64,000 nt of DNA from Escherichia coli (GTDB lineage: Bacteria > Pseudomonadota > Gammaproteobacteria > Enterobacterales > Enterobacteriaceae), in assembly GCF_001677475.2 (NCBI RefSeq), contig NZ_CP015229.1, one strand, 5' to 3'. The position numbers and the translations under genes were made by a program. The notes below the pieces were generated by a model. It was not told where the DNA came from. It was given only the letters and a program-made list of their open reading frames with translations, and searched no databases. This document shows positions 2,919-50,790 of this stretch, one piece after another. Position 1 is the first letter of the stretch. Every line of letters starts with the position of its first letter.

Positions 2919-4826
2919 ATGTCATTAATCAGTATGCATGGCGCATGGCTGTCGTTCAGCGACGCGCCGCTTCTCGATAACGCAGAACTGCATATCGAAG
3001 ATAACGAACGTGTTTGTCTGGTGGGCCGCAACGGCGCAGGCAAATCGACGTTAATGAAAATCCTCAACCGTGAACAAGGGCTGGATGACGGTCGCATTAT
3101 TTACGAGCAAGATTTGATTGTAGCTCGTCTGCAACAGGATCCGCCGCGTAACGTTGAGGGGAGTGTTTATGATTTCGTTGCCGAAGGCATTGAAGAACAA
3201 GCGGAATACCTGAAACGCTATCACGATATTTCGCGCCTGGTGATGAACGACCCGAGCGAGAAAAATCTCAACGAACTGGCGAAGGTTCAGGAACAGCTGG
3301 ATCACCACAACCTGTGGCAGCTGGAAAACCGCATCAACGAAGTGCTGGCGCAACTGGGGTTAGATCCTAACGTTGCGCTGTCGTCGCTTTCCGGCGGCTG
3401 GTTGCGTAAAGCGGCATTAGGACGCGCGCTGGTGAGCAATCCGCGCGTATTGCTGCTCGACGAACCGACTAACCACCTGGATATCGAAACCATCGACTGG
3501 CTGGAAGGATTCCTTAAAACCTTCAATGGGACGATAATTTTCATCTCCCACGACCGTTCGTTTATCCGCAATATGGCGACGCGCATTGTTGATCTCGATC
3601 GCGGCAAGCTTGTGACCTATCCTGGGAATTACGACCAGTACCTGCTGGAAAAAGAAGAAGCCCTGCGCGTGGAAGAACTACAAAATGCCGAGTTCGATCG
3701 CAAACTGGCGCAGGAAGAGGTGTGGATCCGCCAGGGGATCAAAGCACGCCGTACCCGTAATGAAGGCCGCGTACGCGCCCTGAAAGCAATGCGTCGCGAG
3801 CGTGGCGAACGTCGCGAAGTGATGGGTACCGCAAAGATGCAGGTGGAAGAGGCCAGCCGTTCCGGTAAGATCGTTTTCGAAATGGAAGACGTTTGCTACC
3901 AGGTCGACGGTAAGCAACTGGTGAAAGATTTTTCGGCCCAGGTTCTACGTGGCGACAAAATTGCCCTGATTGGTCCGAATGGATGCGGCAAAACCACGCT
4001 GCTGAAACTGATGCTCGGTCAGCTTCAGGCGGACAGCGGGCGTATTCACGTTGGCACCAAACTGGAAGTGGCTTATTTCGATCAGCACCGTGCGGAACTG
4101 GATCCCGATAAAACGGTGATGGATAACCTTGCTGAAGGTAAGCAAGAGGTGATGGTTAACGGCAAGCCACGCCATGTTTTGGGCTATTTGCAGGACTTCC
4201 TGTTCCATCCGAAACGGGCGATGACGCCGGTACGTGCGCTTTCTGGCGGTGAGCGTAACCGCTTGTTGTTGGCGCGTTTGTTCCTCAAACCAAGCAACTT
4301 ATTGATTCTTGACGAACCGACCAACGATCTTGATGTTGAAACGCTGGAACTGCTGGAAGAACTGATCGACAGCTACCAGGGCACGGTATTGCTGGTGAGC
4401 CACGATCGTCAGTTTGTCGATAACACCGTTACAGAATGCTGGATCTTCGAAGGCGGCGGTAAAATTGGTCGTTATGTCGGCGGTTATCATGATGCCCGTG
4501 GTCAGCAAGAACAGTATGTGGCGCTCAAACAGCCTGCGGTGAAAAAAATCGAAGAAGCCGCCGCGCCAAAAGCAGAAACTGTAAAACGCAGCAGTAGCAA
4601 ACTAAGCTATAAATTGCAGCGCGAACTGGAGCAGCTACCGCAATTGCTCGAAGATCTGGAGGCGAAGCTGGAAGCCCTACAGACGCAGGTGGCGGATGCT
4701 TCCTTCTTCAGTCAGCCGCATGAGCAGACACAAAAAGTGCTCGCTGATATGGCTGCTGCAGAGCAGGAGCTGGAGCAAGCCTTTGAACGCTGGGAGTATC
4801 TTGAAGCGTTAAAAAATGGTGGCTGA
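2919..4826 (+). CDS. uup: ABC-F family ATPase Uup
   Basis: 635 aa, two ABC cassettes (GRNGAGKST / GPNGCGKTT, LSGGE signatures), C-terminal coiled coil. Confidence 0.93.
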   Translation: MSLISMHGAWLSFSDAPLLDNAELHIEDNERVCLVGRNGAGKSTLMKILNREQGLDDGRIIYEQDLIVARLQQDPPRNVEGSVYDFVAEGIEEQAEYLKRYHDISRLVMNDPSEKNLNELAKVQEQLDHHNLWQLENRINEVLAQLGLDPNVALSSLSGGWLRKAALGRALVSNPRVLLLDEPTNHLDIETIDWLEGFLKTFNGTIIFISHDRSFIRNMATRIVDLDRGKLVTYPGNYDQYLLEKEEALRVEELQNAEFDRKLAQEEVWIRQGIKARRTRNEGRVRALKAMRRERGERREVMGTAKMQVEEASRSGKIVFEMEDVCYQVDGKQLVKDFSAQVLRGDKIALIGPNGCGKTTLLKLMLGQLQADSGRIHVGTKLEVAYFDQHRAELDPDKTVMDNLAEGKQEVMVNGKPRHVLGYLQDFLFHPKRAMTPVRALSGGERNRLLLARLFLKPSNLLILDEPTNDLDVETLELLEELIDSYQGTVLLVSHDRQFVDNTVTECWIFEGGGKIGRYVGGYHDARGQQEQYVALKQPAVKKIEEAAAPKAETVKRSSSKLSYKLQRELEQLPQLLEDLEAKLEALQTQVADASFFSQPHEQTQKVLADMAAAEQELEQAFERWEYLEALKNGG

Positions 4827-4955: not shown

Positions 4956-6209
4956 ATGTGCGAACATCATCATGCCGCGAAGCACATCCTGTGCTCGCAG
5001 TGTGACATGCTGGTGGCGTTACCGCGCCTTGAGCATGGTCAGAAAGCGGCATGTCCCCGGTGTGGCACAACGTTAACCGTGGCGTGGGATGCCCCTCGGC
5101 AGCGTCCCACCGCCTATGCGTTGGCTGCACTGTTCATGCTGTTGCTGTCCAACTTGTTTCCTTTTGTGAATATGAACGTTGCAGGAGTTACCAGTGAAAT
5201 TACATTACTGGAAATTCCCGGCGTGCTTTTTTCTGAGGACTACGCCAGCCTCGGCACCTTTTTCCTGTTGTTTGTGCAACTGGTTCCCGCGTTTTGTCTG
5301 ATAACCATTCTGTTACTGGTGAATCGCGCGGAATTACCGGTCCGTTTAAAAGAGCAACTGGCACGGGTGCTTTTTCAACTCAAAACCTGGGGAATGGCGG
5401 AGATTTTCCTTGCGGGTGTGCTGGTCAGTTTCGTTAAACTGATGGCCTACGGCAGCATTGGTGTCGGCAGCAGCTTTCTCCCCTGGTGTTTATTTTGTGT
5501 CCTGCAACTGCGCGCCTTTCAGTGCGTTGATCGTCGCTGGTTGTGGGACGATATCGCCCCGATGCCAGAACTGCGCCAGCCGCTAAAACCTGGCGTCACG
5601 GGGATACGTCAGGGGCTGCGTTCTTGCTCCTGTTGTACGGCAATCCTTCCTGCTGATGAACCCGTATGCCCGCGCTGTGGTACTAAAGGGTACGTTCGGC
5701 GTAGAAACAGCCTGCAATGGACACTCGCGCTGCTTGTAACGTCCATCATGCTGTATCTTCCGGCTAATATTTTGCCCATCATGGTGACGGATTTATTAGG
5801 CTCGAAGATGCCATCGACGATTCTCGCTGGGGTCATCCTGTTATGGAGCGAAGGATCTTATCCCGTCGCTGCGGTTATCTTTCTGGCCAGTATTATGGTG
5901 CCAACGTTAAAGATGATCGCCATAGCGTGGTTGTGTTGGGATGCCAAAGGGCATGGCAAGCGCGACAGTGAAAGAATGCATTTGATTTATGAAGTTGTTG
6001 AGTTTGTAGGCCGCTGGTCGATGATTGACGTTTTCGTTATCGCGGTGCTCTCGGCGCTGGTGCGTATGGGAGGTTTAATGAGTATTTATCCGGCAATGGG
6101 TGCATTAATGTTTGCTTTAGTCGTCATAATGACAATGTTTTCTGCTATGACGTTTGACCCGCGTTTGTCGTGGGATCGTCAACCTGAATCAGAGCATGAG
6201 GAGTCCTGA
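4956..6209 (+). CDS. pqiA: Paraquat-inducible membrane protein A
   Basis: 417 aa, N-terminal Cys clusters, polytopic membrane protein, followed by pqiB and pqiC. Confidence 0.9.
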   Translation: MCEHHHAAKHILCSQCDMLVALPRLEHGQKAACPRCGTTLTVAWDAPRQRPTAYALAALFMLLLSNLFPFVNMNVAGVTSEITLLEIPGVLFSEDYASLGTFFLLFVQLVPAFCLITILLLVNRAELPVRLKEQLARVLFQLKTWGMAEIFLAGVLVSFVKLMAYGSIGVGSSFLPWCLFCVLQLRAFQCVDRRWLWDDIAPMPELRQPLKPGVTGIRQGLRSCSCCTAILPADEPVCPRCGTKGYVRRRNSLQWTLALLVTSIMLYLPANILPIMVTDLLGSKMPSTILAGVILLWSEGSYPVAAVIFLASIMVPTLKMIAIAWLCWDAKGHGKRDSERMHLIYEVVEFVGRWSMIDVFVIAVLSALVRMGGLMSIYPAMGALMFALVVIMTMFSAMTFDPRLSWDRQPESEHEES

Positions 6210-20077: not shown

Positions 20078-20740
20078 TCAGGAAGATGGTTGTTTTTCCG
20101 CCCATTGCAGAAAAGTATTTCGCGTTTGTGGGTCAGCCAGTTTAAACCAATACTTCAGCCGTTGTTCTGTGAGCACCTGAGACTGCGGTGGAATAGCATC
20201 CAGCTCGGAAACACCCGAAAGCAGCGTACTGTCATCTGCCATCATCGTGGCAAATTGCGGTAGTGAAGCGCGTTTCGCGGATTTGTTATAGCGTTCAACC
20301 TCGACCTCATAATCAATCGTTTTTGCCGTTGAGGTAATGGCGAGAATATCCAGCTTTACCGGAATCGGCGTCGCATCGCCATCCAACAATTCAAGGCGCG
20401 GCGCGGCATCAAAATGGTTAGCTTCCCGCTCATTCTCCAGGCGAGGCAGGCGAAAATTGACCTGGTTGATGAGCTGGGTATTAAAACTGACCACCAGCGG
20501 TGGGGAGATATACAGCCGTTCTTCACTATTGGAAAGATGAATCGTCTTCTCAACGCGAAACACTAACTGATGCGGTCCGTTATCCAGTTCAATGCTGTCC
20601 GCACCGCGCAGCAGAGAGCTGGAAACCTTCTTGCCGTCGAGTACCAGAAGATCGACATCGGTTGAAAGCCGCAGCGTGGTGGCAAAAACGGATACCGGCA
20701 AACATAATGCAATCAAGGTGGTCACGATGCCGGTTTTCAT
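20078..20740 (-). CDS. yccT: Periplasmic protein YccT
   Basis: 220 aa with signal peptide, K-12 synteny. Confidence 0.85.
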
Positions 20741-20912
20741 AGATAGCTCCTGTCAAAAGACCGCCCGAATAATAATGTGTCAAATTTTTTCTTTAATCAT
20801 ACTTACTAACATATAGACATATTTCCCGCTTTTGCTCTCATTCATTCGTATTAGCTGCATGGTTGGCATGTCGGCTTTGTCGTACACTTTGTTAAACAGT
20901 CTGGAGGAAATA

Positions 20913-31116: not shown

Positions 31117-31404
31117 TTAAGGTGTTACAGGGAACTGTCGGCGGGCGTGAACTACGCTAACAATTTCAATGCCTGAAATTGTCACGCGGTATAGAATTAT
31201 GTAATTGGGGTGAGCAACAATTTCACGCAAACCCGGAACTCTGTCGCTTGGCGGGTATAAATACGGATGCTCAGATAATGGCAGGACGCAAGTCCTTAAG
31301 CGTTTCCACAAACGTTCTGCCGCATCTATATCAAAACGAGCAATATAGCTAGTTATATCATCCAAGTCGGCATCTGCGCTTTCGAGCCATAAAACCGGTA
31401 ACAT
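31117..31404 (-). CDS. RelE/ParE-family toxin
   Basis: 95 aa, small basic protein immediately downstream of a small antitoxin-like ORF. Confidence 0.6.
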   Translation of the reverse strand: MLPVLWLESADADLDDITSYIARFDIDAAERLWKRLRTCVLPLSEHPYLYPPSDRVPGLREIVAHPNYIILYRVTISGIEIVSVVHARRQFPVTP

Positions 31405-31596
31405 TTACTGCTTGCTCCGTTCCTTGCGCATGTTAGCAAAGCGTTCAGCCATTCTGCGTTCAACTTCGTCATGTGGGATGGCTGGACGTGGATCAGCAAG
31501 GCTTGCGGCCACTTTTGCACGCAGCCATTCGTTATAACTATTTTCTTGCTCGATGGTTTCAAATTCAGAAACCATTGGTGAAAGGGCTGTGTTCAT
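31405..31596 (-). CDS. Cognate antitoxin (small acidic DNA-binding protein)
   Basis: 63 aa from MNTALSPMVSEFE...; abuts the toxin start. Confidence 0.5.
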   Translation of the reverse strand: MNTALSPMVSEFETIEQENSYNEWLRAKVAASLADPRPAIPHDEVERRMAERFANMRKERSKQ

Positions 31597-31631
31597 GGCG
31601 AACCTCGTTTTGTAAGTGCTGGTAATTCTGC

Positions 31632-32027
31632 CTAGGTAACTTTTTGTTGTGCTGCTAGCCACCTTGCAACTATACGATCCATTGTCTCTTTTTTTTCCTT
31701 CATATCTTTAAGTATTTGCTGTTGATCTTCCTCTGGAAATGCCTCAAATGTTTGAAGTAGCTCCTTTTGCTTAGGAGATATTTTTAATATATCCTGTGTT
31801 TTGTCTTCTTTTTCTTCATTTAATGGTAAGAAAAACCAATGTTGGGGAAAACCCGTTACTTCAGATAGTTTATCTAGATTAGCTGCTGTAGGGCTTGATA
31901 TACCACAAACCCACCTTTGGACGGATTGTTGAGCAATACCAATTCTGCGCGCAAGCTCTGCTTGACTCCAGCCTTTTTCTAATAGAAGCATCTTAATTCT
32001 AAGAGCACTAATTTCGAGTACGCCCAT
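31632..32027 (-). CDS. XRE-family HTH repressor (CI/RacR-like), paralog A
   Basis: N-terminal HTH LRIKMLLLEKGWSQAELARRIGIAQQSVQRW; C-terminal domain shared with the next ORF. Confidence 0.65.
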   Translation of the reverse strand: MGVLEISALRIKMLLLEKGWSQAELARRIGIAQQSVQRWVCGISSPTAANLDKLSEVTGFPQHWFFLPLNEEKEDKTQDILKISPKQKELLQTFEAFPEEDQQQILKDMKEKKETMDRIVARWLAAQQKVT

Positions 32028-32057: not shown

Positions 32058-32429
32058 TCAGGCTCGGCGACCTTGTCGCGCCAACCAACGTGCAACAAGA
32101 TCTTCCATTGCCTCTTTTTTATTTCTTAGTTCTTTTATGATCTCCTGCTGTTCATTATCAGGAAAAGCACTAAATATTTGTAGTAATTCCAATTGGTTAG
32201 GGGTTAATGCCATAGATCTTGATGACGAAGATTCTGTTGTGTCTTCAGGTTCCATATCAAGATAACCCCCAGGCATCCCATATGTTTGCTCAATACGTCT
32301 AGCTGCCTTTTCGCCAAACGTAGATTTACCGCTCATTAACTGAGATAAGTAACTTTTCTCTTTAGGCGGCAAAGTCCTGTCTTTGAACCACTCTTTGAGG
32401 CGTAAACGCCGAATCTCTTTTGTTTCCAT
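32058..32429 (-). CDS. HTH repressor, paralog B, divergent from cro-like gene
   Basis: C-terminus LTPNQLELLQIFSAFPDNEQQEIIKELRNKKEAMEDLVARWLA parallels paralog A. Confidence 0.6.
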   Translation of the reverse strand: METKEIRRLRLKEWFKDRTLPPKEKSYLSQLMSGKSTFGEKAARRIEQTYGMPGGYLDMEPEDTTESSSSRSMALTPNQLELLQIFSAFPDNEQQEIIKELRNKKEAMEDLVARWLARQGRRA

Positions 32430-37031: not shown

Positions 37032-37244
37032 ATGAATACTCTTACCAAAGAATGGTTACAGAACACGATTACCAGCATTGAGTCAGCACGGGATGAAATA
37101 CCATTCGGACTCGATGAAGATCAAAGCAACATGCTTACCGCATTTACATTCCGGCGAGGAGAAGCAACGATTAAGCCGGGTAATGGTATTGAGCAGGCAA
37201 CTCACAGGATGAAATTACCGGAACCGCCGCAGGAGGTGAACTGA
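37032..37244 (+). CDS. Hypothetical protein
   Basis: 70-aa ORF; N-terminus paralogous to ORF 36369. Confidence 0.35.
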   Translation: MNTLTKEWLQNTITSIESARDEIPFGLDEDQSNMLTAFTFRRGEATIKPGNGIEQATHRMKLPEPPQEVN

Positions 37245-37639
37245 TGAAAGATGAAGTCGACAATGTTATCACCCTGGTACAGCCAAAATCAGAGGAGGAA
37301 GGACTCCTCAACGTTGTGATAACCGACAGAAAAAGCGGCGAGCAAAAATGCTGTCAGCATATCCGTACAACAATTTCAGAAGTGAATCGTACGATTACCT
37401 GCAACCGGTGTGGATTAGCTTTAGAGCCATTCGAGTTTATTCTCGATCGTGCGAGAAACGGTGAAAACATCGTGTCTGAGATTAAATCACTCTATGCAAA
37501 GCGGGATGCTCTTCGTGAAGCTGTGGCAAAACTTGAACGTGAAGAGAAAAACGCCAAAGCCCGGTTACGAGCAGCCAGGACAGCAATACTGTATGCGGAA
37601 AATGACCTTAAAAATATTGAGCAGGAGGTGAATCGATGA
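37244..37639 (+). CDS. Hypothetical protein with CxxC zinc motif and coiled coil
   Basis: 131-aa ORF. Confidence 0.4.
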   Translation: MKDEVDNVITLVQPKSEEEGLLNVVITDRKSGEQKCCQHIRTTISEVNRTITCNRCGLALEPFEFILDRARNGENIVSEIKSLYAKRDALREAVAKLEREEKNAKARLRAARTAILYAENDLKNIEQEVNR

Positions 37640-37719
37640 CCTGGCCTGAGGCATTCACCACGGTAGGAATTGCGATGGCGGTGGCGCTGGTGGTGTATTC
37701 GATTTGCCGCTGGGGATAA
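37636..37719 (+). CDS. Possible 27-aa hydrophobic peptide
   Basis: MTWPEAFTTVGIAMAVALVVYSICRWG, ATGA overlap with upstream gene. Confidence 0.25.
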   Translation: MTWPEAFTTVGIAMAVALVVYSICRWG

Positions 37720-37843
37720 ATCGCCGAAAAAAGATCCCGACACAAACATGAGCCGGGATCTTTGATTTATATAGCCTACGAATCCGCCAGTAAGAGAGGG
37801 GGCGGATGGTTTATTCTACCACCGGAATGATGTGGGTAAAAAT

Positions 37844-38143
37844 TTATAAGAAATCGGTTTCATAACTTTGCCCACCATGATAGATACCGACAATAAAGAC
37901 TTTTCTGCCATCAACGGCAAAAGCAATAATCGTTCTGTGGCGGAAATGAGTTACCCGCATCCCCTGGCGAATATCATCGCGTTTATTGCCCCGATGCGGG
38001 AATGTAGAAAACCCATCAAGATAATCAAGAAGCGCATTGGCATAATTGTCAGCAATGACGTTCCCTGCTTTCTCCGTTATATATCTGTGCAGGTTGATTA
38101 TTTGTTGTTCGGCCTCAGGAGTAATGATGACTTCATATGTCAT
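37844..38143 (-). CDS. ParE/RelE-family toxin
   Basis: 99 aa; paired with upstream ParD-like gene. Confidence 0.65.
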   Translation of the reverse strand: MTYEVIITPEAEQQIINLHRYITEKAGNVIADNYANALLDYLDGFSTFPHRGNKRDDIRQGMRVTHFRHRTIIAFAVDGRKVFIVGIYHGGQSYETDFL

Positions 38144-38148
38144 GCAGA

Positions 38149-38406
38149 TTACTTCCCGGATCGAATCGCGGCGCGAACCTGTGAAATGGAGCGTCCGTTG
38201 TTTGGATTTTCGCGGATAGAATCAAGAGAGGGGGCGGCTGAATGCGTTAACCACGCTTCGATTGCTTTATCGCGCTCATTCAGTGCGCGAAGCCCTTCAC
38301 GAATGACCTCGCTTTCTGAAGCATAGGCACCGGAAGCCACACGGGCGCGCACCATGTCAGCCATCTCGTTAGTTAATGTAATGCTGAATTGTTGGGTTGT
38401 ACGCAT
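38149..38406 (-). CDS. ParD-like ribbon-helix-helix antitoxin
   Basis: From MRTTQQFSITLTNEMADMVRARVASGAYASESEVIREGLRAL. Confidence 0.65.
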   Translation of the reverse strand: MRTTQQFSITLTNEMADMVRARVASGAYASESEVIREGLRALNERDKAIEAWLTHSAAPSLDSIRENPNNGRSISQVRAAIRSGK

Positions 38407-38487
38407 GGTAAACCTCACGGAGTAGGATAGAACACCATTCGATGATAGCACGTTGCCTGTTGACGACAACAGAAATCAGAGACAATA

Positions 38488-38820
38488 TTGCCGCACGCCA
38501 GCCTGAACAACTGGCACCTGCTGCGCCAGCAGAGACAACCGATGGCGCACGATACCAAATTACACAATTCTGATGATTCTGCCGTCTTTGCCAGCAGGCA
38601 CGGGCGGCGTTCCTGCACTTTCAAATCTGACTGGTTCCAGCATGACCCATGCACTGAAGAACAGGCCGAGTGGCTGATTCAGTGCTACCGCAGACACGGA
38701 TACGAGATTAAGAAAGCCCTCAGCCTCGATTATCGTCACTGGATAATCTCCGTCAGGCTTCCTTACTCTGAACGCCCACCACGTCCATCCCGCACATTCC
38801 AGCAACGCATCTGGAGGTAA
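38488..38820 (+). CDS. Hypothetical protein
   Basis: 110-aa ORF. Confidence 0.35.
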   Translation: MPHASLNNWHLLRQQRQPMAHDTKLHNSDDSAVFASRHGRRSCTFKSDWFQHDPCTEEQAEWLIQCYRRHGYEIKKALSLDYRHWIISVRLPYSERPPRPSRTFQQRIWR

Positions 38821-38821
38821 C

Positions 38822-39880
38822 ATGCGGGTATTGCTTCGACCTGTTCTGGTACCGGAACTCGGACTGGTTATCGTTAAGCCAGGCCGTGAATCCATGCAGG
38901 TATTCCATAACGGCAGAGTACTGGTGGAACCGGAACCGAAAAGTATGCGCGGTCTGCCGTCCGGAGTCGTTCCTGCCGTTCGCCAGCCGCTGGAGGAGGA
39001 TAAATCATTACTGCCGTTTTTCAGTAACGCACGGGTGATTCGTGCTGCTGGTGGTGCTGGTGCATTGTCTGACTGGCTGTTGCGCCATATTAAATCCTGC
39101 CAGTGGCCACACGGCGATTATCACCACAGTGAAACCGTCATTCACCGTTATGGCGCTGGCGCGATGGTGTTGTGCTGGCACTGCGACAACCAGTTGCGTG
39201 ACCAGACAGCCGAATCACTCGAGCAACTTGCTCATCAAAACCTGTCAGCATGGATGATTGACGTCATCCGTCACGCAATGAATGGCACACAGGAGCGGGA
39301 ATTATCGCTGGCTGAATTATCCTGGTGGGCAGTCTGCAATCAGGTGGCGGACGCGCTACCGGAGACAGTATTACGTCGTTCTCTGAGGTTACGTGCGGAA
39401 AAAATCCGCTCGGTGTATCGCGAAAGCGACATCGTACCGGGAGAGCAGACCGCCACCAGCATACTAAAGCAGCGCACAAAAAATCTTGCGCCGTTGCCTC
39501 ACTCTCATCAGCAACAGAACCCGCCACAGGAAAAGACGGTGGTCAGCATTGCCGTTGATCCGGAGTCACCGGCTCAGTATCTCCAGCGCCAGAAACCACA
39601 ACGGGAAGAGATGCCCGTATACACGCGCTGGGTAAAAACGCAGAAATGCATGACGTGCGGTAATCAGGCAGATGATCCGCATCACATCATTGGTCATGGA
39701 CTGGGAGGGATGGGAACAAAGGCTGATGATTTGTTTGTTATTCCGCTGTGCCGTAAATGTCATAACGAACTGCACGCCGGGGTAAAAGATTTTGAAGAAA
39801 AACACGGCAGCCAGCTGTTGTTGCTGATTCGTTTTTTAATGCACGCGAGAAATTCGGGTGTCCTGAAGTGGAAAGCATGA
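38822..39880 (+). CDS. YdfU-like (DUF968-type) protein with C-terminal Cys/His zinc motif
   Basis: 352 aa; CMTCGN...HHIIGHG...CRKCHNELH. Confidence 0.5.
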   Translation: MRVLLRPVLVPELGLVIVKPGRESMQVFHNGRVLVEPEPKSMRGLPSGVVPAVRQPLEEDKSLLPFFSNARVIRAAGGAGALSDWLLRHIKSCQWPHGDYHHSETVIHRYGAGAMVLCWHCDNQLRDQTAESLEQLAHQNLSAWMIDVIRHAMNGTQERELSLAELSWWAVCNQVADALPETVLRRSLRLRAEKIRSVYRESDIVPGEQTATSILKQRTKNLAPLPHSHQQQNPPQEKTVVSIAVDPESPAQYLQRQKPQREEMPVYTRWVKTQKCMTCGNQADDPHHIIGHGLGGMGTKADDLFVIPLCRKCHNELHAGVKDFEEKHGSQLLLLIRFLMHARNSGVLKWKA

Positions 39881-42379: not shown

Positions 42380-42455
42380 GGCCCTTTAGCTCAGTGGTGA
42401 GAGCGAGCGACTCATAATCGCCAGGTCGCTGGTTCAAATCCAGCAAGGGCCACCA
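42380..42455 (+). tRNA. tRNA with CAT anticodon (Met or Ile2-lysidine; ileZ-like)
   Basis: 76 nt cloverleaf, anticodon loop CTCATAA, terminal CCA. Confidence 0.8.
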
Positions 42456-42460
42456 CCTTA

Positions 42461-42541
42461 CCGCCATTAGCTCATCGGGAAGAGCAAATGACATGATAAC
42501 AGGGTTGTTGGTGCGGGGTTCGAGTCCTCGATGGCGGTCCA
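42461..42541 (+). tRNA. tRNA-like sequence (argN-like; non-canonical anticodon arm)
   Basis: Acceptor stem CCGCCAT/ATGGCGG, D-arm and T-arm (GGTTCGAGTCC) present, terminal CCA; anticodon stem does not fold canonically. Confidence 0.5.
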
Positions 42542-42554
42542 TTATCTGCATCAT

Positions 42555-42631
42555 GCGTTGTTAGCTCAGTCGGACAGAGCAATTGCCTTCTAAGCAATCG
42601 GTCACTGGTTCGAATCCAGTACAACGCGCCA
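42555..42631 (+). tRNA. tRNA-Arg (anticodon TCT; argO-like)
   Basis: 77 nt, anticodon loop CTTCTAA, GGTTCGAATCC T-loop, terminal CCA. Confidence 0.8.
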
Positions 42632-50504: not shown

Positions 50505-50790
50505 AAACCGCTTGCAAAAAATTATCACGGGACTGTATGCTTCCCGCGTCACCCACATGGTGACCGGGTTTGACAGCCTGAATACTACAGCGGACAGCCG
50601 CTTACATTCCGATATGCGGTTTTTTTGTGTCCGTAAACCTACCCATACCCGCATTATGGCGGGGCGTAACGGGGGAGCCTTTGCGCTCGCTGGTTCCTGT
50701 AGTGCCAGTCTGTCAACCCTGTTACGTCTCGCCACCATGTTTGACAGCGTAGTAGCGAGACTCCTTAATTTCACTACAGGAGCCTTTCAC

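Follow-up and report, generated by a model that had tools for sequence, protein, structure and literature searches.

ParE toxins, where characterized, trap DNA gyrase, and their usual partner is a ribbon-helix-helix (RHH) antitoxin of the ParD family. Some ParE-like pairs, PfiT/PfiA and PrpT/PrpA, are said to have regulatory roles as well, in phage production and plasmid copy number. The canonical systems, Caulobacter ParDE1 (3KXE), M. opportunistum ParDE3 (5CEG/6X0A) and ParDE of plasmid RK2, share a simple layout: the antitoxin gene comes first and encodes an RHH ParD protein with a C-terminal extension, and the toxin gene encodes a ParE-fold protein of about 100 residues. PfiT/PfiA of Pseudomonas Pf4 (9W3A), which is prophage-encoded, and PrpT/PrpA of Pseudoalteromonas (7YCS) also join a ParE-like toxin to a ParD-like antitoxin on mobile elements. 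A third arrangement, PaaR-PaaA-ParE, is a known three-component system found in the immunity region of prophages like CP-933P; its representative in O157:H7 CP-933P, PaaR2-PaaA2-ParE2 (5CW7), likewise places a ParE-fold toxin in a lambdoid prophage (PMC8630535).

The pair described here follows the canonical antitoxin-first plan. It lies in a stretch of 64,000 nucleotides from Escherichia coli (contig NZ_CP015229.1), called the window below, and is very probably a self-contained type II toxin-antitoxin (TA) cassette, a moron lying within the nin-like region of a lambdoid prophage next to yccA. The elements of the cassette are these:

37634..38489, minus strand: mobile cassette of about 856 bp (terminator, parE, parD, promoter region), bounded by homology break-points in pairwise blastn
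37727..37763, minus strand: predicted intrinsic terminator downstream of parE, stem AAAGAUCCCGGC…GUCGGGAUCUUU, then U6
37844..38143, minus strand: parE, 99 aa, ATG start (Pfam, PHROG, AlphaFold2 model, Foldseek)
38149..38406, minus strand: parD, 85 aa, ATG start (Pfam, NCBIfam and PHROG matches, solved ParD chains)
38413..38416, minus strand: Shine-Dalgarno sequence GAGG, 6 nt upstream of the parD ATG, conserved
38442..38469, minus strand: candidate sigma-70 promoter of parDE (consensus scan, 9/12 plus TG)
38458..38471, no strand assigned: 14-bp palindrome TGTTGTCGTCAACA with core GTCGTCAA, spanning the -35 region, read from the sequence
38460..38489, plus strand: outward promoter-like site, -35 TTGACG, 18-nt spacer, -10 AATATT (scans)

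The interval 37844-38406 is filled exactly by the two adjoining minus-strand open reading frames, parD and then parE. Only 5 nt separate the parD stop from the parE start in this antitoxin-first bicistron, a gap that makes translational coupling plausible. Purifying selection acts on both genes (dN/dS about 0.05-0.15), with values of 0.095 for parE, from the window and a 90%-identical allele, and 0.045-0.15 for parD. A longer form of parD starting at TTG (to 38469) was unsupported and was dropped, because RefSeq annotates 258 nt and PHROG 6494 matches residues 1-85 of 85.

The original prediction had named the products a ParD-like RHH antitoxin and a ParE-like toxin, and had singled out profile searches as the result that might overturn this. 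Instead, profile searches support the assignment, both proteins scoring above curated cut-offs, and fold comparison, operon anatomy and comparative boundaries agree with them. The parD product matches Pfam PF03693 (ParD_antitoxin; E=1.6e-7, 32.1 bits, cut-off 21), NCBIfam TIGR02606, which is the Caulobacter CC2985-type ParD (1.5e-14, 53.8 bits, cut-off 46.2), and PHROG 6494 'antitoxin' (1.7e-56), and its best PDB matches are the solved ParD chains 3KXE_C, 7YCV, 7B22, 6X0A_a and 8C24_C. The Pfam and PDB alignments span residues 6-51, and the N-terminal RHH DNA-binding part is predicted to comprise about these residues; the C-terminal part, residues 52-85, presumably binds the toxin. In a fused ParD-linker-ParE model, the helices of ParD, at 13-24, 31-66 and 74-83, have high pLDDT, and the N-terminal strand is absent from this monomer, as is expected of an RHH strand that lacks its dimer partner. 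Residues 51-80 have pLDDT of at least 90 in the fused model, values that express confidence and are not a contact map, and the model is consistent with docking of these residues on ParE.

The parE product matches Pfam PF05016 (ParE_toxin) over profile positions 1-89 of 89 (E=3.2e-10, 40.9 bits, cut-off 23) and PHROG 5232 'toxin' at 3.4e-43; an NCBIfam search with the toxin gave no meaningful match. PF05016 includes a subcluster (#4) of true RelE-like mRNases beside the gyrase-poisoning ParE toxins (Gerdes 2025, PMC11980606), so the question of ParE versus RelE was examined separately, by fold and by PDB profile. Because a single-sequence PDB search with the toxin returned just one weak match, 6X0A (E=0.007), the family was aligned, a profile search was run, and an AlphaFold2 model was made from 18 homologues. 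The model (pLDDT 83.6) has two long N-terminal helices and then a three-stranded sheet (elements E4-7, H9-26, H28-47, E61-67, E71-78 and E81-89). When it was compared with the PDB by Foldseek, ranks 1-22 were all ParE-type toxins (E 2e-5 to 9e-4, TM about 0.7), among them PfiT, M. opportunistum ParE3, P. aeruginosa ParE, PrpT, V. cholerae ParE2, M. tuberculosis ParE1, E. coli ParE2 and Caulobacter ParE1. In contrast, the RNases RelE, YoeB, YafQ and HigB matched much worse, with E of at least 0.009 and TM of 0.4-0.55. The family profile, run against all PDB sequences, retrieved ParE-class chains only and no RelE. As modeled, then, the toxin fold is closer to solved ParE proteins than to the RelE, YoeB, YafQ and HigB RNases.

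These comparisons bear directly on the alternative that the toxin is a RelE-like, ribosome-dependent mRNase acting on translation, an activity with which the module would remain a type II TA system. The Pfam name by itself leaves the target unfixed, given the mRNases within PF05016; RefSeq calls the protein only a 'RelE/ParE family toxin', and its identity to any solved ParE is low, 11-24%. However, the twenty-two leading structural matches, the profile search devoid of RelE, and a partner antitoxin that is a ParD-family RHH protein of the Caulobacter CC2985 type all point the other way, and we consider a RelE-like activity improbable. For the ParE-type toxin that we prefer, the target is most likely DNA gyrase, by analogy with characterized ParE toxins. 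To our knowledge, none of the closest structural neighbors, PfiT, PrpT and M. opportunistum ParE3, is itself an established gyrase poison; with such neighbors and 11-24% identity, the gyrase assignment is not secure.

Compared with the canonical systems, among which M. opportunistum ParE3 (6X0A/5CEG) and Caulobacter ParD1 (3KXE) are the best sequence or profile matches, the pair stands apart in this low identity and in belonging to a narrow, mostly enterobacterial prophage subfamily with an invariant motif of its own. PfiT and PrpT, although top-ranking structural neighbors, are only 16-17% identical to the toxin of the window and come from a different phage type and host. A word-seeded homologue search found the narrow ParE family in E. 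coli, Salmonella, Yersinia, Enterobacter and Erwinia, plus one Desulfovibrio member at 51% identity. The motif FPxRGNxRDDIRxGxRxTHFRH marks the subfamily, and its FPxRGNxRDDIRxGxRxT portion is common to all members found. At every homologous locus examined (E. coli, Yersinia, Enterobacter, Desulfovibrio, Erwinia and Salmonella), parD precedes parE, and in prophages of E. coli, Salmonella, Erwinia and Yersinia the pair is usually antisense to the adjacent prophage genes. In all six of these bacteria the pair belongs to a mobile element.

The cassette is ordinary and already known: hundreds of public genomes carry the same annotation. In a set of 5,426 complete E. coli genomes, 327 carry parE, always on the chromosome and never on a plasmid, and 364 carry parD; the parE of RM10466 is identical in DNA to that of the window. 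RefSeq labels the products 'RelE/ParE family toxin' and 'ParD family antitoxin', and the counterparts WP_000220600.1 and WP_000220601.1 (toxin) and WP_001260977.1 (antitoxin) are the same proteins or near-identical alleles. Neither these entries nor PHROG 5232 and 6494 differ in substance from the pair described here; they are annotations and not experimental characterizations. Indeed, we know of no experimental characterization of the ParE subfamily of enterobacterial prophages. The literature searched yielded no experimental study of the cassette; it refers just to orphan ParD and HigA antitoxins of EHEC phages, whose role is called unclear (PMC12502783).

Such an orphan parD, intact and with its promoter, is present in O157 Stx2a phages (LC727840, 1799-2777; 37 E. 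coli genomes). It has 86% nucleotide identity to the parD of the window, with the N-terminal 47 residues identical, the changes confined to the C-terminal half, and dN/dS of 0.15. In these phages a lipoprotein-like ORF replaces parE, and a HigA-like antitoxin ORF comes next.

The boundaries of the cassette emerge from pairwise blastn comparisons. Phage ArgO145 matches the window at 97.4% over 37634-38489 and is unrelated to it on either side of this block; in ArgO145 the copy belongs to the early-left arm, close to the integrase gene. Homology to BCE049 likewise starts at 37634, and homology to OkiPb01697 starts at 37845. Directly downstream of parE, OkiPb01697 carries a Hok/Gef type I toxin gene and a 117-aa ORF (2323-2938), which stand in place of the terminator region found in the window; TA-type genes thus stack at this hotspot. 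BCE049 has a 28-bp tandem duplication (GCTGGCGCAGCAGGTGCCAGTTGTTCAA; about 20720-20880) immediately beyond the edge of the cassette, on the upstream side of the parDE promoter; the window lacks it.

Around the cassette, the genes run on the plus strand. It is preceded by the early-right genes, the cro-like ydaS, ydaT, a replication gene and small nin-like ORFs, the last of which extend to 37639, and is followed by a 92-aa ORF (38542-38820), a DUF968 gene (38822-39880) and then RusA- and Q-like genes. The antisense layout of parDE is therefore real, as had been predicted for a minus-strand pair inside a plus-strand block, and the predicted coordinates were exact. The predicted moron layout also holds: there are a promoter-like site, a terminator and break-points at 37634 and 38489, the PHROG category is 'moron', and the anatomy together with the insertion polymorphism justifies the description. 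The prophage adjoins yccA, as in strain BCE049, and the helD gene of the window is 99.5% identical to E. coli genomes. The prophage is a mosaic, for no complete E. coli genome covers at least 80% of the 7.7 kb that reach from its immunity region to the cassette. What lies divergent from parD varies as well. At this position, ArgO145 (5032-5709), the Stx2a phages (3102-3779) and Erwinia and Salmonella prophages (1814-2410 and 1836-2414) have an ORF of 190-225 aa, which in the last two includes an ORF6N domain; the window has the 92-aa ORF and DUF968 there.

The candidate parDE promoter consists of a -35 element TTGTCG (38469-38464), a 16-nt spacer and an extended -10 element TGcTATCAT (38450-38442). 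The -35 block and the -10 element are invariant in five E. coli or phage copies whose flanks are variable, and equivalent sites are present in the Yersinia, Erwinia, Salmonella and Enterobacter copies. Around the cassette there are 4 promoter-like sites against 2.4 expected in shuffled sequence, only a slight excess, and the site is put forward as a candidate promoter. The TGTTGTCGTCAACA palindrome, too, is constant in five E. coli or phage copies while its flanks vary, and the GTCGTCAA core occurs in 8 of the 9 copies examined, including those of Yersinia, Enterobacter, Erwinia and Salmonella. From the behavior of RHH antitoxins, the palindrome is a candidate operator for ParD or for ParD-ParE. 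The strict palindrome was rejected as a universal operator: its left arm is not conserved in Yersinia and Enterobacter, where only the GTCGTCAA core is kept, and for this reason the operator is called a candidate only.

At the other end of the cassette, the terminator, predicted to be strong, is formed by an inverted repeat with arms at 37730-37744 and 37749-37763, and the RNA of 37715-37845 folds at -39.5 kcal/mol (z = -3.6). A consensus terminator scan missed this hairpin, which was recovered by inverted-repeat search and folding. On the plus strand, a weaker T-rich tract, TTTGATTTAT, comes after the hairpin (37730-37763), which may therefore be bidirectional and also end early-right transcription entering from the gene at 37244-37639.

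The outward promoter-like site stands back-to-back with the parDE promoter, shares its GTCGTCAA core, and faces the 92-aa ORF, DUF968, RusA and Q. Its score is 9/12 in the window, but the copies of ArgO145, the Stx2a phages, Yersinia, Erwinia and Salmonella reach 10/12 (-10 TATATT). Position 38489, where the cassette stops, is also where the -10 element of the outward site ends.

The pair had also been described as the second ParD/ParE module of the prophage, which did not hold up. Searches of the window by tblastn with both proteins revealed no second ParD and no close ParE paralogue, and the other module is of the PaaR-PaaA-ParE2 type, a close homologue of the O157:H7 system:

31117..32027, minus strand: three-gene PaaR-PaaA-ParE2-type module (Pfam PaaA2 and PDB 5CW7 matches)
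31117-31404, minus strand: ParE2-type toxin (5CW7 ParE2 at 2.7e-55; nearly identical to E. coli O157 ParE2)
31405-31599, minus strand: PaaA2-domain antitoxin (Pfam PaaA2 at 1.2e-20)
31632-32027, minus strand: HTH regulator (PaaR-like), third gene of the module

In contrast to this module, parDE has an RHH ParD rather than PaaA2 as its antitoxin, includes no third gene for a separate HTH regulator in its cassette, and lies in the nin-like region, not the immunity region. The prophage thus carries two unrelated ParE-type systems, PaaR-PaaA-ParE2 in the immunity region and the ParDE moron in the nin-like region. Nor is it notable, as had been suggested, that one prophage should hold two pairs, as both modules are also annotated in the equivalent OkiPb01676 prophage; nine sister genomes gave matching search results. 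Comparison of toxin with toxin and antitoxin with antitoxin gave no BLASTP alignment at E <=100, which makes cross-neutralization between the parDE and PaaA-ParE2 modules unlikely. In the window, a second PaaR-like gene (32058-32429, minus strand) stands in tandem with the first, beside the divergent ydaS/ydaT, and is 36% identical to the first regulator over the C-terminal 77 residues; in related prophages, OkiPb01676 for example, there is a single regulator.

From the anatomy of the cassette, parD and parE would be co-transcribed from their own sigma-70 promoter, opposite to the early-right strand, as far as the intrinsic terminator, and with its own promoter and terminator the pair should be expressed in the lysogen independently of phage early transcription. 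Family knowledge suggests that a ParD dimer would bind the GTCGTCAA-containing palindrome over the -35 element through its ribbon-helix-helix, giving autorepression, and that the C-terminal part of ParD would wrap and neutralize ParE. If ParD were lost, whether by proteolysis, by loss of the prophage segment or by shut-off of host transcription, free ParE would poison the cell, most likely by trapping DNA gyrase. The pay-off could be stabilization of the prophage segment (addiction), abortion of infection by other phages, or both.

It is with this pay-off that the readings diverge. The same mechanism might have been selected for anti-phage defense, or superinfection exclusion by abortive infection, and not for prophage stabilization. 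A cassette with its own promoter-like site and terminator, moving between unrelated prophage contexts and sitting at the usual site of lysogen-expressed accessory genes in lambdoid prophages, would suit this role, and the intact orphan parD of some Stx2a phages would fit a counter-defense antitoxin, an idea also raised in PMC12502783. However, PADLOC-DB v2 gave no match at E <=0.01 for the toxin or antitoxin of either module, leaving the defense role without database support, and for the PaaA2-ParE2 system of related prophages, addiction and not defense has been demonstrated (PMC8630535). Selection for defense is thus a tentative reading that we find rather doubtful. Far less can be said for the view that parD and parE are chance ORFs, or remnants that have decayed or lost their function. 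It is true that no complete E. coli genome matches in full the exact arrangement of the 7.7 kb between immunity region and cassette, and that many prophage accessory genes decay; but both frames are intact and under purifying selection, and the pair is conserved across genera with profile E-values down to 1e-56, so that decay is effectively refuted.

A further departure from the plain type II TA moron would have ParD, alone or with ParE, double as a phage regulator, the shared operator controlling the outward promoter to DUF968-RusA-Q, or to the ORF6N genes, and so linking the TA module to prophage development. A link of this kind between TA state and prophage development has reportedly been proposed for PfiT/PfiA in Pf4, and PfiT is the best structural match of ParE. 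The back-to-back promoter-like sites that share the conserved GTCGTCAA core, the 10/12 outward site in five divergent copies, and the boundary at the end of its -10 element are all in keeping with regulation. Against it, these are consensus matches only, the outward -10 of the window (AATATT) is weaker, and the gene downstream varies with the context, and we think such a dual role quite unlikely. Slightly less likely still is a fuller scheme in which ParD or ParD-ParE would gate the outward promoter into the DUF968-RusA-Q late-control genes (or ORF6N antirepressor-like genes), antiterminated antisense early-right transcription would shut off the antitoxin on induction, and the orphan parD of Stx2a phages would act as a trans-acting regulator or anti-toxin. 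If true, this gating and antisense shut-off would couple the TA state to the lysis-lysogeny program. For the self-contained TA moron that we favor, the importance beyond correct annotation is small: exact cassette boundaries and candidate control elements are now supplied.

Two minor features lie elsewhere in the window. Stx phages carry tRNAs ahead of stx, and Stx2A has 319 aa. At the corresponding position here, downstream of the Q-like gene, are tRNA-Met(CAT) and tRNA-Arg(TCT) (42380-42631, plus strand); an stx-sized ORF was not seen directly after the two tRNAs, the next listed ORF having 141 aa. In the late/structural region, a full-length match to the Rfam C4 antisense RNA (RF01695, 72.3 bits) occupies 50652-50739 on the plus strand.
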